A stretch of 13,309 nt of DNA from the NCBI GenBank assembly GCA_016183125.1, contig JACPFG010000072.1, positions 1-13,309 on the forward strand. Direction: 5' to 3'. Of this stretch, positions 383-12,011 are shown piece after piece; position 1 is the first letter of the stretch; the number at the start of each line of letters is the position of its first letter. Source of the DNA: Deltaproteobacteria bacterium (GTDB lineage: Bacteria > UBA10199 > GCA-002796325 > JACPFF01). The notes beneath the pieces are model-generated. The model was not told the DNA's origin. It ran no database searches and saw only the letters and a list, made by a program, of their open reading frames with translations. Made by a program: the position numbers and the translations under genes.

Positions 383-1174
383 ATGCCAAACATGAAAATG
401 GTCGGATATCTGACCGGTGGCATCCTGCTGCTGCTGATCGCGCTATCTGCCAATCCGTTCGTGATGATCGGCGCCGGCGAACGGGGGGTAGTTATGCAGC
501 TGGGGGCCGTGCAGGAGAAGGTCCTGGAAGAGGGGCTCCATTTCCGGGTCCCGTTCGTACAACGGGTAGTCGTGATCGATGTTAGGACGCAAAAGATGCA
601 GGTAAACGCCCCCTCGTACAGCCGCGACCTGCAGAACGTCGACACCGTTATCGCCCTTAATTTTCACGTCGATCCGACACGGGTAAACAAGCTCTGGCAG
701 GAGATCGGACGGGACTTCGAGGGTCGGATCATCCATCCGGCGATACAAGAATCGGTTAAGGCGGCCACGGCCCAGTTCACCGCGGCCGAGCTGGTGGAAA
801 AGCGCCCGATGGTTAAGGACGAGATCAAGAGCATCCTACAGGAGCGGCTTGGCGGGCGCTATCTCCTGGTGGACGATTTCTCCATCGTCGATTTCAAGTT
901 TTCCGAATCCTACGAGAAGGCGATCGAGGAGAAGCAGGTCGCGCAGCAGCAGGCCCTAAAGGCGGAAAACGATCTGCGCCGGATTCAGGTGGAGGCCGAG
1001 CAACGGGTCGCCACCGCAAAGGCCGAGGCCGAGGCCATAAGGATTACAGCCGAGGCCCTGCGGCAGAATCCGGACCTGATTCAGTTGGAGGCGGTGAAGA
1101 AATGGGACGGCAAGATGCCGCAGTTTGCCGGGGGCGGATCGATGCCGTTTATCAACCTTCCCACGGGAAGATAG
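383..1174 (+). CDS. SPFH / band-7 / prohibitin-family membrane protein
   Basis: ORF 134-1174. The likely start is ATG 383 ([10 protein letters not shown]...), preceded by AAAGGGGAG. It has an N-terminal TM helix ([18 protein letters not shown]), then a PHB-domain-like core and a C-terminal coiled coil ([37 protein letters not shown]). Stop TAG 1172-1174. Confidence 0.85.
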
Positions 1175-1511
1175 GGGACGGTTTACGCATGGCCTTGACC
1201 CCCGCCCGGTGACGTTTGTCGGCAAGCATCCGCTCCTTCGAACGGCGCGAACGCAGTCGTTTTTGCCGGCGGATCTTTTCTCGGCGCTGCTCCTCGGCGC
1301 TGGCAGCCCCCAATAGTTTGGCCTCCAGCTTTTCGCACAGCAAACGTCGCGCAAGAAAACGATTGATCGCCTGGCTCCGCTCCCTCTGGCATTTGACCTC
1401 TATCCCGGTAGGCCGGTGGCGCAACACCACGCAGGTGGAGGTCTTGTTGACCTTCTGCCCGCCGGCCCCCGACGATCGCGGATCCCAAGTCGCGCCATTC
1501 GGGCCGCCAGT
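1152..1511 (-). CDS. GGQ-domain peptidyl-tRNA hydrolase of the class-I release-factor family (ArfB/YaeJ-like alternative ribosome-rescue factor) with a basic C-terminal tail. The frame is anomalous. It has no ATG/GTG/TTG between an in-frame TGA (1512-1514) and the GGQ motif. The same frame continues upstream as a 24-codon ATG-initiated ORF (ATG at 1584-1586), giving 144 codons overall. Possible pseudogene or recoded gene.
   Basis: My translation of the - strand reads ...[58 protein letters not shown]...[19 protein letters not shown]... This matches the RF GGQ domain ([13 protein letters not shown]...PTGIxVxCQxERSQ) and the ArfB tail (KERRLASK...VKAMRGK, from memory). The ORF track fragments it into 1152-1430 (GTG start downstream of GGQ) and a wrong-frame 1183-1515. 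Confidence 0.6.
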
Positions 1512-1607
1512 TCATTCCCCTTTGCCGGAGATACGGGCCAATTCATAGAGCGTCCTTTCGTAGACCGCATAGGCAAGTTCGATCATCGCCGACTATATAG
1601 AAAGGGC

Positions 1608-1664: not shown

Positions 1665-1868
1665 ATGAGCGATGTATTGGTAGTGGCCTCGAAGGTGAAG
1701 CAGTATATCAAGGGGAAGTCCGATATGAACGTCTCGGCCAGCACGCTCGCGGCCCTGACCGATCTGGTCAAAAAGGCCTGCGACGGCGCGATCGAGAAGG
1801 CAAAGCAGGAGGGCCGGAAGACCGTGATGGATCGGGACTTTGGCGATAACGCCTGCACCCAGGTCTAG
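1665..1868 (+). CDS. 67-aa bacterial histone-fold protein (singlet histone, HBb/Bd0055-like; candidate nucleoid-associated protein)
   Basis: MSDVLVVASKVKQYIKGKSDMNVSASTLAALTDLVKKACDGAIEKAKQEGRKTVMDRDFGDNACTQV. The C-terminal AKQEGRKTVMDRD aligns with archaeal HMfB AKHAGRKTIKAEDI (the RKT loop-L2 motif). The N-terminal VLVVxSKVKxxIK pattern matches bacterial histones as I recall them. Strong SD and promoter. ATG is internal to track ORF 1416-1868. Confidence 0.75.
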   Translation: MSDVLVVASKVKQYIKGKSDMNVSASTLAALTDLVKKACDGAIEKAKQEGRKTVMDRDFGDNACTQV

Positions 1869-3377: not shown

Positions 3378-3399
3378 ATACCTTCGGAGGGGGGTGGAT

Positions 3400-3642
3400 A
3401 TGGCGACCTCTGTGCGCACGACCATCGTGCTTCCCGGCGAAAAACTGAAGGAGCTCAAACGGCTCGCGTTTGAGCAGGGTTCCACGATCGGCCGGCTGGT
3501 GAACGAGGCCTTGGACCGGGTGTTTTTCAAGCGGCGGAAACAACGGCGGTTTCATGACCTTCGGGGTCTCTGGAAGGGGCGGCGGTTTAGTGAAAGCGCC
3601 ATTGAGGCGGCGAAACTCCGGATGAAGACCTTTCCGTCATGA
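3400..3642 (+). CDS. vapB: Ribbon-helix-helix (CopG/VapB-type) antitoxin
   Basis: MATSVRTTIVLPGEKLKELKRLAFEQGSTIGRLVNEALDRVF... SD GGAGGGGGG (3387-3395). Stop TGA overlaps the vapC ATG (ATGA at 3639-3642). The track ORF starts at GTG 3394. Confidence 0.8.
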   Translation: MATSVRTTIVLPGEKLKELKRLAFEQGSTIGRLVNEALDRVFFKRRKQRRFHDLRGLWKGRRFSESAIEAAKLRMKTFPS

Positions 3643-4031
3643 CGTACGTGCCCGATACCCATGCCTTGGTGTGGTTTCTCGCCAATGATCCGCGTTTGGG
3701 TCGCCGCGCCGGGATGGTGTTTCAGGAGGCCGCAGCGCAGTTCGCTGTGCCCACTCTCGTGCTCTGCGAGATGCACTATTTGGCGGAGCGGGAACGCATT
3801 GCCAGGGACATGGCCAAGATCCTCGACTATATGCGGGGCGACGATCGCTTCGCCCTGATCCCCTTGGATGAGAACGTTATTAGGCATCTCCCCGGGGGCC
3901 TGGACATTCATGATGGCATTATCGTTGCCACGGCGCTTGCCGTCGGCATGGCACGAAAGACCAAATCCATTCTTGTCACCCGCGATGCCGACATCCGCCG
4001 CGCGGGCCTGGTCGAAACTATTTGGGAGTAA
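3639..4031 (+). CDS. vapC: PIN-domain ribonuclease toxin VapC
   Basis: 130 aa. Conserved acidic residues: D6 (VPDTHAL), E (LCEMHYLAE), D (IHDGIIVATA) and D (VTRDADI). 4-nt overlap with vapB. Confidence 0.85.
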   Translation: MTYVPDTHALVWFLANDPRLGRRAGMVFQEAAAQFAVPTLVLCEMHYLAERERIARDMAKILDYMRGDDRFALIPLDENVIRHLPGGLDIHDGIIVATALAVGMARKTKSILVTRDADIRRAGLVETIWE

Positions 4032-4046
4032 GAGCGCGTAACGAAA

Positions 4047-5699
4047 TCAAAACTCCAGCGACAGCGTGAGACGTCCCCCGTACGCGGGATTGGCCTTGTC
4101 GTACGGCATCGTGGCGACGATCGAGCCCGGATCGATCAGCCCGACATCGATATTATAAGCGCTCCCCGGCCAGAGATAGCCTGCCTCGAGGCTGGTGAAG
4201 AGGTGATCGAAGAAGCGGGCCTCTGCGACCAGGTCGAATTCAACACCGTACCATTTCCCCCGGCTCTCGATCGAGGGCATATTGGCGTTCCCCAGGATCT
4301 CGGCGAAATTAAGGCTCACAGGCGGCTTGTGCGCCCAGGCGGTGATCACCCGCCCACCTACCTTAAACTCATTGGCCGACCTAATCGCCCGGCGGATATC
4401 GAGCCGGTGCAGATATGTCGCCCCGCCGTAGAAGGCGTTATTGATGAAATTGCCGGTGATCGGCACGCCGCCGGTAAGGGTAGCACCGGTCGTCCCGTTT
4501 CGCAGTGTCGGCGATGTTCCAAGCGGGTGGTGGAATAGGAGCAGGCCGAGATTATAGTCCGGCCGGAAGCCGAACTGTGTGATCCGCTGCGAGAGCGGTG
4601 TTGCATCCCCCTCGGCAAAACCTCCCTGCAGCTTCCACTCTCCGCCCCAGTCGTAGGTCCCCTCCGCCTCGACGGCAGCTAGATTAACAGCCAGGTCCTG
4701 CTTGGCCGGCAGCTGGATTATCCCGGGGGCGGCAAGGCCCGTGAATGGGATGGCATTTAGGGCCACACCTGTGGAGATCTTGCCGCCCAGCCGCACATAT
4801 TCGAAGGCCACCTTGTGGTGCGGATCGATCTTCACCCGGCCATACGCATCTAGAAAATACATAAGCGTGTCGCCGTCTATGCCTGCGGCCTGGGTGACAC
4901 CGTTGATGTCCGTCGCCGTCGTCGTGGTGCCAGTGCTCCCGTCCCGCCTGCGCAGGCCCCCATAGGCCCCCACCGCAAAGCGGGGCTCCTCATAGAAGGC
5001 GACCAGGGCATACTGGTTCGTATCCTGCCCGTTATCCCGAATGGCTGTGCCCAGCCCCCCGATCCGCGGGTCCCGCTGGGCCTCGAACGCGATGTCCCAT
5101 AGCGCGCCGACCGTCAGGGCCCCATCGGTGCCGATCGCCTGCTGGGTTAAGAACATCACCCGGTCGGCCGTGTCGCCAAAATCACCCTGTCGGTGGTTGC
5201 CGTCGTTCTGGAAGATCCCCAGCCCCCAGTGAGAGGGCTGGCGCCCTGCGCGCAATTTGCCAATCGGCGTGAAGATGTCGATCCACGCGCGGCGCACGTT
5301 GAGACTGCGGTTTTCGCCCGCCTCGCTCCCGACCACACTCAAACTCCCCGCGCCGGCGGGGAGCGTGATCGTGCCCACCACCGGTGAGAGGACCTCCAGT
5401 TGTTTGGTCGCCTGGCTGCCGAAGGTCAGATTGTCGAGGATATCGAACTGGGTGTGGAGAGAGAGAAAATCGTTTACCTTGAGTGTCGGTTCCACCCGCA
5501 GGCGCATCTGGTTGTACTGGATAAGGCCGAACCGGTCGTTCGTATTTGCCAGGGTGCTCGGCCTCTGTGTATCAAGATCTTGAAGCGCCGACCCTCTGAG
5601 CCGATAGTAACCGTGCGCGGCAAAATCAACCGCGTGGCCAAGGCGGGGAGAGAGGACGCAGCAAAGTAATGCCGGCAACAACCGCGCGATCGCTTTCAT
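4047..5699 (-). CDS. Outer-membrane beta-barrel protein, 550 aa, with signal peptide and C-terminal Phe
   Basis: N-terminal MKAIARLLPALLCCVLSPRLGHA signal peptide. Alternating hydrophobic beta-strand pattern, rich in G/Y/N/D. C-terminal ...GGRLTLSLEF, the aromatic terminus typical of the OMP beta-signal. No family assignment is possible by eye. Confidence 0.75.
   Translation of the reverse strand: MKAIARLLPALLCCVLSPRLGHAVDFAAHGYYRLRGSALQDLDTQRPSTLANTNDRFGLIQYNQMRLRVEPTLKVNDFLSLHTQFDILDNLTFGSQATKQLEVLSPVVGTITLPAGAGSLSVVGSEAGENRSLNVRRAWIDIFTPIGKLRAGRQPSHWGLGIFQNDGNHRQGDFGDTADRVMFLTQQAIGTDGALTVGALWDIAFEAQRDPRIGGLGTAIRDNGQDTNQYALVAFYEEPRFAVGAYGGLRRRDGSTGTTTTATDINGVTQAAGIDGDTLMYFLDAYGRVKIDPHHKVAFEYVRLGGKISTGVALNAIPFTGLAAPGIIQLPAKQDLAVNLAAVEAEGTYDWGGEWKLQGGFAEGDATPLSQRITQFGFRPDYNLGLLLFHHPLGTSPTLRNGTTGATLTGGVPITGNFINNAFYGGATYLHRLDIRRAIRSANEFKVGGRVITAWAHKPPVSLNFAEILGNANMPSIESRGKWYGVEFDLVAEARFFDHLFTSLEAGYLWPGSAYNIDVGLIDPGSIVATMPYDKANPAYGGRLTLSLEF
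4049..4069. repeat. Right copy of the 21-bp direct repeat AAAACTCCAGCGACAGCGTGA. It forms the functional 3' end (…RLTLSLEF-stop) of the OMP gene.
   Basis: Exact match to 3307-3327. Confidence 0.7.
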
Positions 5700-5730
5700 T
5701 TGGTGCCCGCGGTTGTAGCCCAGGCGGTTT

Positions 5731-5772
5731 AAAAAAGCAAACGGGGCGAGGAGAAGATCCCCTCGCCCCGTT
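5731..5772 (-). terminator. Rho-independent terminator of the groESL operon. Stem CGGGGCGAGG/CCTCGCCCCG with a 9-nt loop; a U-tract on the - strand from the A6 run at 5731-5736.
   Basis: Perfect 10-bp GC-rich inverted repeat 5742-5751/5761-5770, read directly. Located 28 nt downstream of the groEL stop. Confidence 0.6.
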
Positions 5773-5797
5773 AAGCATTGCCTAAAATAGCCGCTGC

Positions 5798-7375
<1,578 letters not shown>

Positions 7376-7678
7376 CTATGCGTTGACTACACCCAAGACA
7401 TCATCCTCGCGAACAATCAGGTATTCCTGCCCTTCCATTTTGATCTCACTGCCAGAGTACTTGCTGAAGAGGATCCGGTCTCCGACCTTGACATCAAGCG
7501 TGCGGGTCTGCCCGTTTTCAAGGACCTTTCCGTTCCCCACCGCGATCACTTCACCCTCTTGTGGCTTCTCCTTGGCGGTATCGGGGATGATGATTCCGAC
7601 CTTGCTCTTCTCCTCCTCCGAGATCCGTTTCACTAGGATACGGTCTTGGAGCGGTCGAATCTTTGGCTTTGCTGCCAT
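7376..7678 (-). CDS. groES: Co-chaperonin GroES (Cpn10), 100 aa
   Basis: [50 protein letters not shown]... SD AAAGGAGGGTG before ATG 7678. The track ORF 7376-7792 is over-extended. Confidence 0.93.
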
Positions 7679-7689
7679 GGCACCCTCCT

Positions 7690-7922
7690 TTAAAATTGGT
7701 TTGACCAGATCGCCTCCCCTCCAGCACCCCACGCTTGAGCGTTGCGATCTTGGCCCTGGCCTTCTGGTCGATGCCCGCCTCGCCTCTGACATACTGGATC
7801 ATAGCCCGCTTGATCTCCTGGGTCATTACATCAGGGTCGTCGGTCTCGATAAGGCCACCTGCCATCAGGGCGCGCCCAATTGCGTGGGCAAGAGAGCTTA
7901 TTCTTTCATCGGATAGAAGCAT
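7690..7922 (-). CDS. Small hypothetical protein (gene B), translationally coupled to the upstream gene by TAATG. As sequenced the frame has no stop until 7551 and so runs 128 nt into groES. Restoring one base in a G-run around 7716-7720 would end it at TAA 7690-7692, just before the groES SD.
   Basis: [66 protein letters not shown]... looks protein-like up to the G-runs, then degenerates ([21 protein letters not shown]). The -1 frame there reads ...[10 protein letters not shown]-stop. Confidence 0.4.
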
Positions 7923-10175: not shown

Positions 10176-11359
10176 TGAAATCGGTCCGCGAGATTGCGTG
10201 TCACGAACAGCGCGTCTTCTTGCGCGTCGATTGGAATTGTCCGCTGGCCGACGACAGGGTGGCCGACGATGCGCGCATCCGTGCGACGTTGCCTACCGTC
10301 AGGTATCTGTTGGAGCAGAAGGCGCGTATTATAATTGCGTCACATCTAGGCCGGCCTTCCGGCGCCGGTTTCGAGCCAAGCTATTCTCTGGCCCCTGTGG
10401 GGGAGCGGCTGGCCGAACTCCTGGCGGACGACACGGAGGTCCTTTTGCCGGAGGATTGCATCGGAGATGCGGCGCGGAAGCTGGCGCATGAACTTGCGCC
10501 GGGCCAGATCCTCTTGTTGGAAAATCTTCGATTTCATCCGGAGGAGGAGAAGAATGATCCCAAATTCGCCGAGTTGCTGGCCGGTCTGGCGGAGGTCTAC
10601 GTGAACGATGCCTTCGGGGCCGCGCATCGGGCGCACGCCTCCATCGTCGGCGTGCCTCGGCTGATGCCGGTGAAGGCGGCCGGATTACTGATGCAGCGGG
10701 AGACAGAGCAGTTAGGTCAGTTGCTTTCTAAACCTGCCCGCCCATTCGTGGCCATGTTGGGGGGGGCCAAGGTGGCAGATAAGATCGGCGTGATCGAGCA
10801 TCTGCTGTCTACCGCAGATGTGCTCGCTATCGGTGGCGCGATGGCGTATACGTTTCTCAAGGCAAAGGAAATTTCAGTCGGCAGGTCGCCGGTGGACGAG
10901 GCGAAGGTGTTCACCGCGCGCAAGGTGCTGGAGCGGGCCGAGACTAAGGGGGTGCGGGTGCTCCTCCCGGCGGACCATATCGCTGCGGCGTCGCCGGAGG
11001 CCGCCGGAAAGGTGATCCGGGAGGCTAATATCCCGGCCGACTTGCAAGGATGCGACATCGGACCCCAAACGACCGTCCAGTTTGCCAGGGTCTGCAAGGA
11101 GGCTCGCACTATCTTTTGGAACGGTCCTATGGGCCGGTTTGAGATCCCGGAGTTTGCGAAAGGAACGGTGGCGGTGGCGCAGGCAGTAGCGGCCAGTGAG
11201 GCGGTGACGGTGGTAGGGGGCGGCGATTCGATTGCGGCGCTGCATCAGGCAGGTGTGGCTGAACGGATCACCCATGTCTCTACTGGTGGAGGGGCAAGCC
11301 TGGATTTCCTGGAGGGGAAGACCCTGCCGGGGATAGAGGCGCTGGAGGTTTCTTCATGA
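10166..11359 (+). CDS. pgk: Phosphoglycerate kinase
   Basis: Canonical PGK sequence throughout. The start is one of ATG 10166, 10172 or 10175; 10175 overlaps the gap stop as TGATG. The TGA stop overlaps the tpiA ATG (ATGA). Confidence 0.95.
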   Translation: MVMMKSVREIACHEQRVFLRVDWNCPLADDRVADDARIRATLPTVRYLLEQKARIIIASHLGRPSGAGFEPSYSLAPVGERLAELLADDTEVLLPEDCIGDAARKLAHELAPGQILLLENLRFHPEEEKNDPKFAELLAGLAEVYVNDAFGAAHRAHASIVGVPRLMPVKAAGLLMQRETEQLGQLLSKPARPFVAMLGGAKVADKIGVIEHLLSTADVLAIGGAMAYTFLKAKEISVGRSPVDEAKVFTARKVLERAETKGVRVLLPADHIAAASPEAAGKVIREANIPADLQGCDIGPQTTVQFARVCKEARTIFWNGPMGRFEIPEFAKGTVAVAQAVAASEAVTVVGGGDSIAALHQAGVAERITHVSTGGGASLDFLEGKTLPGIEALEVSS

Positions 11360-12011
11360 CATCACGGGGCCTGGTGGTGGGCAACTGGAAGATGCACGGG
11401 ACGATAGGGGAGAGCCTGAAGCTCGTAACAGGGATGGAGCATCATCTTAAGGCCCCTGTGGAGCTCGACGTTGCCGTGGCACCTCCTTTCACGGCGCTCT
11501 ATTCGGTAGGGATAACCCTGCAGGAGACCCAGTTTCATCTGGCGGCCCAACAGATGATATCGTGAATAAGAAACTTGAGGCTGCGTTGCGCAATGAGCTC
11601 GCGCCGATTTTTTGCGTAGGTGAGACGGCGGATGAGCGCGAACGGCGTGAAATGGAGACTGTGCTCGAGCGACAGATCAAACGAGGCCTGGCCGGGTTGC
11701 ATCATAAAGATGTGGAACATCTAGTGGTAGCCTACGAGCCGATATGGGCGATTGGGACGGGCAAGACAGCGACAGCAGACCAGATAGCCGAGGCCCATCA
11801 TTTCCTTCGCAATCTATTGGAAAAACTATACGATGCGCCTACGGCCGTGCAGGTGCGAATCCTCTACGGGGGAAGCGTCGCTGTGGAGAGTGCGGGTTTG
11901 ATAGCTGAGTTAAATGGGGTTGACGGTTTCCTGGTCGGTGGAGCGTCGCTAACAGCCGGTGACTTCGCCGAGATCGTCCGTACGGCTGAACTGAAGATCC
12001 GAAAGAGGTGA
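11356..12011 (+). pseudogene. tpiA: Triosephosphate isomerase gene disrupted by an internal deletion of about 118 nt plus a frameshift. The N-terminal 69-codon fragment is 11356-11565. The C-terminal 149-codon fragment is 11562-12011, in another frame.
   Basis: The N fragment ...VGNWKMHGT...VAVAPPFTAL...LAAQQMIS-stop matches TIM up to the AQN region. The C fragment starts (V)NKKLEAALRNELAPIFCVGE... and continues with YEPIWAIGTGKTAT...ILYGGSV...GGASL. The catalytic H95 segment is missing between them. Confidence 0.8.

Follow-up and report, generated by a model that had tools for sequence, protein, structure and literature searches.

Human C12orf65 (mtRF-R) acts on split large subunits together with an S4-like partner, MTRES1. 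In the classification of Burroughs and Aravind (2019, PMC6514570), the proteins called 'ArfB class 1' (YaeJ, ICT1) carry an alpha-i insertion, while 'classical ArfB' is without this insertion and is grouped with C12orf65; a C-terminal helix with positive charge is common to the two. Rescue factors of this type are accessory and patchy in distribution, and a response to ribosome-targeting toxins has been proposed for the C12orf65-like hydrolases (PMC6514570). A further relative is prfB (RF2), a release-factor-family gene with its N- and C-terminal parts in two frames and an in-frame UGA nearby, which is read by a programmed +1 frameshift. Among the recognised defects of metagenome-assembled genomes (MAGs) are local assembly errors by which protein-coding genes are corrupted (Chen et al. 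2020, PMC7111523). The window analysed here is the entire 13,309-nt contig of a draft NCBI MAG, 'Deltaproteobacteria bacterium'. We find in it a C12orf65-like gene of about 140 codons with a 28-nt frameshifting gap, which most probably arose as an error of local assembly or scaffolding in the draft contig. The features of the locus are as follows.

1553..1557, minus strand: Shine-Dalgarno-like AAGGA, 6 nt upstream of the ATG at 1546, read in the sequence, with a putative function in initiation
1476..1546, minus strand: N-terminal fragment in frame B with the true start, ATG 1546-1544, from family profile positions 2-26 and the homologue alignment
1512..1514, minus strand: the 'in-frame UGA', in register with the GGQ and out of register with the real N-terminus
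1475..1476, no strand: deletion junction, 28 nt missing relative to the closest intact homologue, frame shifted by one (-1, B to A)
1152..1478, minus strand: C-terminal fragment in frame A, with RSSGAGGQ, two strands, a long basic helix and the stop TGA 1154-1152
1463-1455, minus strand: GGQ codons, by direct reading of the sequence
1400..1546, minus strand: peptide as written from the genuine start, 48 residues without GGQ, ending at TAG 1402-1400
1152..1430, minus strand: the only start-bearing ORF in the GGQ frame, 92 aa from GTG 1430, beginning past the GGQ

A database search returned thousands of homologues of 135-141 aa, named 'peptide chain release factor-like' and sharing a common consensus. 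The window's protein has the GGQ motif and matches the Pfam RF-1 domain (PF00472) at 77.9 bits against a cut-off of 35, but it scores only 39.1 bits with the NCBIfam ArfB equivalog (NF006718), for which the cut-off is 100, and the prfB, prfA and PrfH domain matches all outscore this ArfB model. The first-pass annotation had called the product an ArfB-like GGQ rescue factor, which is right in the broad sense of a GGQ RF-1 domain with a basic tail. Past the GGQ the alignment to the 135-141-aa homologues is free of gaps, so there is no alpha-i insertion, and the basic C-terminal helix is present. For the intact homologue P0001 the best solved structure is human C12orf65 (7A5H chain C, E 6e-22, residues 21-116 against 54-149), as opposed to the ArfB structures in the PDB, that of E. 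coli included, which reach only E about 1e-5. By sequence comparison the gene is placed in the bacterial C12orf65/mtRF-R-like 'classical ArfB' group, and the intact family protein would hydrolyse peptidyl-tRNA on stalled ribosomes or subunits without need of a stop codon. The likeness to human C12orf65/mtRF-R (MTRFR, 7A5H chain C; mouse 2RSM) lies in the GGQ RF-PH domain without alpha-i followed by a positively charged C-terminal helix, and the C12orf65 segment LEEQFVKGHGPGGQ is the counterpart of the stretch that is deleted or shifted in the window. On the other hand, the window's gene differs from these in its bacterial origin, its distinctive helix at the N-terminus (FPVSPxKxxELxxRMxxLGI) and its lack of a mitochondrial presequence, and it is a disrupted copy. 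With ArfB (YaeJ) of E. coli and ICT1 it shares the GGQ domain and the basic C-terminal tail, but its family is without the alpha-i helical insertion that class 1 has between the last two strands. The 20-residue basic tail of the window's protein is visibly similar to the tail of E. coli ArfB. The C-terminal extension PSPIFPWEG is not common to the aligned homologues. This bacterial group is widespread, and the window's copy teaches nothing further about the family.

The two halves of the gene are found in two different frames. A family profile was built from 27 intact homologues and run against the six-frame pieces of the window (n=404). In frame A, which holds the GGQ, profile positions 34-134 were matched (E 6e-56), with the match starting exactly at RSSG, and in frame B positions 2-26 were matched (E 6e-6 among the 404 pieces); positions 27-33 were absent from all the six-frame pieces of the window. 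The N-terminal fragment at 1476..1546 also aligns with the N-termini of intact homologues at the protein level and with the DNA of L001, a homologous locus from Logan run SRR22388048. In the protein alignment with the homologues, a gap of 8-9 residues separates this N-terminus from RSSGAGGQ. The single uninterrupted ORF of the family, with the strand before the GGQ loop (positions 27-33), is therefore not present in the window, and the gene as written is, judged from its frames, a disrupted copy that would not be a functional family member.

The GGQ frame had previously been taken as the only continuous one. On the minus strand it runs from ATG 1586-1584 through MIELAYAVYERTLYELARISGKGE to TGA 1514-1512 and on to TGA 1154-1152, and direct reading gives 144 codons from ATG 1586 to the codon at 1157-1155. 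The letters bear out that the TGA is in frame with the GGQ, that no ATG, GTG or TTG lies between them in this frame, and that the first start, GTG 1430, comes past the GGQ. What fails is the assignment of the N-terminus: neither the 24 codons before the TGA nor the 11 codons after it give a family match with the profile of intact homologues, and the conserved N-terminus is in frame B. In this true N-terminal frame the TGA at 1512-1514 straddles AAT-GAA, the codons of N11 and E12. The count of 144 codons is correct, but its match to ArfB length by way of the UGA is a coincidence, as the stretch from ATG 1546 to 1155 with 28 nt added comes to 140 codons, i.e. the family length.

The DNA reference for the gap was L001, which at ~77% identity is the closest intact homologue found at the DNA level. 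Pairwise alignment of the window with L001 shows a single clean gap of 28 columns with well-aligned flanks. The window reads GGGATCCGCGA|TCGTCGGGGGCC at the junction, and L001 reads GGGATTACCGA[GGCCGATCTGGAGGAGCACTTTGTCCGC]TCCTCGGGGGCC, where the brackets enclose the segment missing from the window. About 9 codons are lost at 1476|1475 (E/A-D-L-E-E-x-F-V), among them one Glu and one Phe with full or almost full conservation across the family. An AlphaFold model of P0001 (mean pLDDT 88.6) has a helix at 7-19, a strand at 27-33, the GGQ loop, strands at 47-53 and 59-62, and a long helix at 68-130. In this model the deleted residues are predicted to be beta1 (E27-33), the strand right before the GGQ loop. 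The Pfam RF-1 match, which covers only profile positions 18-116, agrees with a lost strand in that it starts at 18 of 116.

Taken together, the locus is a gene of about 140 codons whose intact product would have a helix at the N-terminus, a GGQ peptidyl-tRNA-hydrolase domain of three strands and, at the C-terminus, a long basic helix. The 28 nt missing at 1476|1475 take away beta1 and shift the GGQ part by one base against the start codon, and the gene as written would then give a 48-residue peptide without GGQ. The 'in-frame UGA' is only what appears when the GGQ frame is extended upstream across N-terminal coding sequence that is out of frame with it, with no recoding involved. The earlier view that the UGA must be decoded gives way to a 28-nt frame-shifting deletion; a pseudogene or a sequencing error had rightly been among the options first listed.

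The release-factor-like gene is not the only one affected on this contig. The other damaged genes are listed below.

5798-7354, minus strand: groEL, 518 aa, with a 72-nt in-frame gap at junction 6800|6799, from alignment with six relatives
11356-12011, plus strand: tpiA, split in two frames, junction at about 11552-11558
about 7700-7922, minus strand: second DUF507 gene, ATG 7922-7920, its 3' end apparently lost, junction at about 7700-7716

GroEL lacks 24 residues that all six aligned relatives have, a loss that takes a near-universal segment of 13 residues. The N-terminal part of tpiA starts at ATG 11356, coupled to the pgk stop via ATGA, and ends at TGA 11563-11565; its C-terminal part is an ORF at 11562-12011 in another frame, and ~37 residues are gone, including the catalytic GHSERR segment. 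In the second DUF507 gene the Pfam match ends at position 163 of 182, past GVLEG, so that the last ~19 positions are missing; beyond GVLEG a foreign frame runs into groES (7376-7678), with only about 37 nt between GVLEG and the groES start. A deletion between this gene and groES, with loss of the DUF507 3' end and of the groES promoter/operator region, is probable. A frameshift between two DUF507 halves was also considered and rejected, as these are two tandem genes coupled by TAATG. PGK, GAPDH, DAHP synthase and SPFH look full length by Pfam coverage. The coding flanks of each gap have no additional stops and are 75-80% identical to relatives.

We infer an artefactual origin for the 28-nt gap. 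Such an origin is favoured over a pseudogene because three to four internal losses within 13 kb, in the canonical groESL and gap-pgk-tpi operons, ill suit a living and abundant organism. Local assembly errors of MAGs (PMC7111523) are defined by missing read support; the likeness drawn here is that of a draft contig with several short internal losses in otherwise well-conserved genes, three of them in addition to the 28-nt gap. Should the gaps be artefacts, at least three genes of this publicly deposited contig would be corrupted (release-factor-like, groEL and tpiA). Errors of this kind spread into protein databases; the shortened 518-aa GroEL has been deposited at NCBI as MBI2346376.1, and the window's PIN protein as MBI2346374.1. 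Some points speak against an artefact. The window is free of Ns and thus gives no visible sign of a scaffold join; the 72-nt loss in groEL keeps the frame, and genomic paralogues may exist elsewhere. Also, every k-mer of a De Bruijn contig is normally backed by reads, and therefore a real allele with the 28-nt loss is equally conceivable.

A genuine pseudogene is the main rival reading, and we regard it as possible though rather unlikely. Here a 28-nt deletion in the organism's own DNA would have inactivated a dispensable back-up rescue factor, and the other gaps would be real too and would reflect decay of the lineage, a minor variant population or redundancy among paralogues. The gap is clean with well-aligned flanks, and a 4-nt GCGA microhomology may underlie it, since an ancestor reading ...CGC GAx ... 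GTG CGA TCG... would have held two GCGA copies exactly 28 nt apart. The accessory and patchy nature of such factors noted above (PMC6514570) fits a dispensable gene, and no intact near-identical copy was found among 5.8 billion proteins, the best match being 75-79%. Yet groEL and tpiA have each lost a segment, near-universal in the one and catalytic in the other, and the region upstream of groES seems gone too, all within 13 kb, which is hard to accept for a viable organism that assembles, and beside the gaps there is no additional decay.

An exact 26-mer across 1476|1475 was absent from the JGI metagenome contigs, and the GroEL segment around its gap, used as query, returned no near-identical fragment. 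Exact-protein look-ups found no copy of the 92-aa, 110-aa and 48-aa ORFs, the histone-like neighbour, SPFH, GroES, PGK or the deposited GroEL. VapC was the sole exact look-up that succeeded, on Logan contig L002 (SRR12113422_1453243), which over its 2,378 nt (1-2378) is 100% identical to window 3418-5795. Run SRR12113422 therefore contains the window's organism. L002 covers no junction, and no independent assembly spanning any of the junctions was found. An origin of the junctions at GATC sites, by restriction or ligation, was considered as well and rejected, as the spacing misfits the release-factor-like gene.

We put only a very small chance on the deletion being real and the locus still being used. 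In such a case a rare -1 slip in the GC-rich run CGA-UCG-UCG-GGG-G would give a GGQ protein without beta1, or the ORF from GTG 1430 would give its own product. If the latter were used, its 92-residue protein without GGQ, having two strands and the basic ribosome-binding helix, could be a catalytically dead competitor or a regulator of ribosome rescue.

For the recoding readings we assembled a set of 61 orthologous loci, made up of 58 loci of GTDB species representatives from many phyla and of L001, L061 and L062. In the 58 GTDB loci and L001 one frame covers profile positions from 6 or below through 100 or above, and the two further loci are nearly as complete. Each of the 61 is read in a single frame of 135-141 codons without a break. 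The whole window gave 0 Rfam matches, SECIS included, and the folding energy of the 91-nt stretch 1520-1430, which holds the UGA and the sequence 3' of it, is no better than that of shuffled versions (z -0.98). Direct reading of 1511-1464 showed no slippery heptamer of the form X XXY YYZ in register.

A programmed -1 frameshift from frame B to frame A, which would make a GGQ protein of 131-132 residues without beta1 under autoregulation of the prfB type, is on these results highly improbable. Homologous halves do lie in two overlapping frames, and frame B is open to 1402-1400, which in principle allows a slip before the GGQ. But the slippery heptamer is missing, the downstream structure is not significant, and 9 conserved residues would still be missing from the product, among them the nearly invariant E and F and those of a core strand. 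Because all 61 related loci are uninterrupted, the frame shift is not a programmed one, and this candidate was rejected. The comparison with prfB leads to the same result: there a conserved shift site restores the full-length protein, whereas the window would need a shift of -1, has neither a slippery site nor an SD-stimulator, stands against 0 of 61 orthologues that are split, and has 9 residues physically missing. The RF2-sensing device put forward in the first-pass annotation likewise finds no support in an RNA element or in the orthologues.

Decoding of the UGA at 1512-1514 (as selenocysteine, by readthrough or in RF2 sensing) into a 144-residue ArfB-like protein from ATG 1586 has an otherwise continuous frame and an ArfB-like length on its side, but it is effectively refuted and keeps next to no probability, as the codons on either side of the UGA (24 before, 11 after) have no family homology while frame B has it, ATG 1586 is intergenic and lies before the true start with its SD, neither SECIS nor any other Rfam family was matched and no hairpin is significant (z -0.98), none of the 61 loci has a conserved UGA or Cys at the position, UGA is an ordinary stop in 7 of the 15 confident genes of the window (vapB, porin, DAHP synthase, gap, pgk, tpiA and the release-factor-like gene), as had been said of it before, and the resulting GGQ domain would still be without beta1 and joined to a non-homologous peptide. 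Selenoproteins have a SECIS 3' of the UGA and a Sec- or Cys-aligned position, and here the homologous N-terminus is read in another frame than the UGA. The suggested partial internal duplication of RISGKGE and RSSGAGGQ was also discarded, since 1515-1535 and 1455-1478 share no DNA repeat; RISGKGE arises when the codons of PVSPAKGNE are read out of frame. A nearly continuous frame with one UGA beside a famous motif invites ideas of recoding, and comparison of all frames with homologues reduces it to a plain indel.

Some observations on the neighbourhood may be added. In L001 (270-1320) the release-factor-like gene overlaps the stop of a PIN (VapC) gene by 4 nt, and this VapC gene is preceded by a small gene. 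The arrangement suggests co-transcription with a toxin-antitoxin pair, and this VapC adjacency may bear on the toxin-response proposal for the C12orf65-like hydrolases. The window has a vapBC pair of its own (3394-4031), which is 2 kb from the release-factor-like gene and on the other strand. A 67-aa ORF at 1665-1868 (plus strand) runs divergently from the release-factor-like gene and has a good GGAG ribosome-binding site (MSDVLVVASKVKQYIKGKSDMNVS...); neither a Pfam match nor an exact recorded copy was found for it. On the other side, the SPFH/Band-7 gene (134/383-1174, plus strand) is convergent with the release-factor-like gene (stop 1154-1152, minus strand), and their 3' ends overlap by 23 nt (1152-1174).
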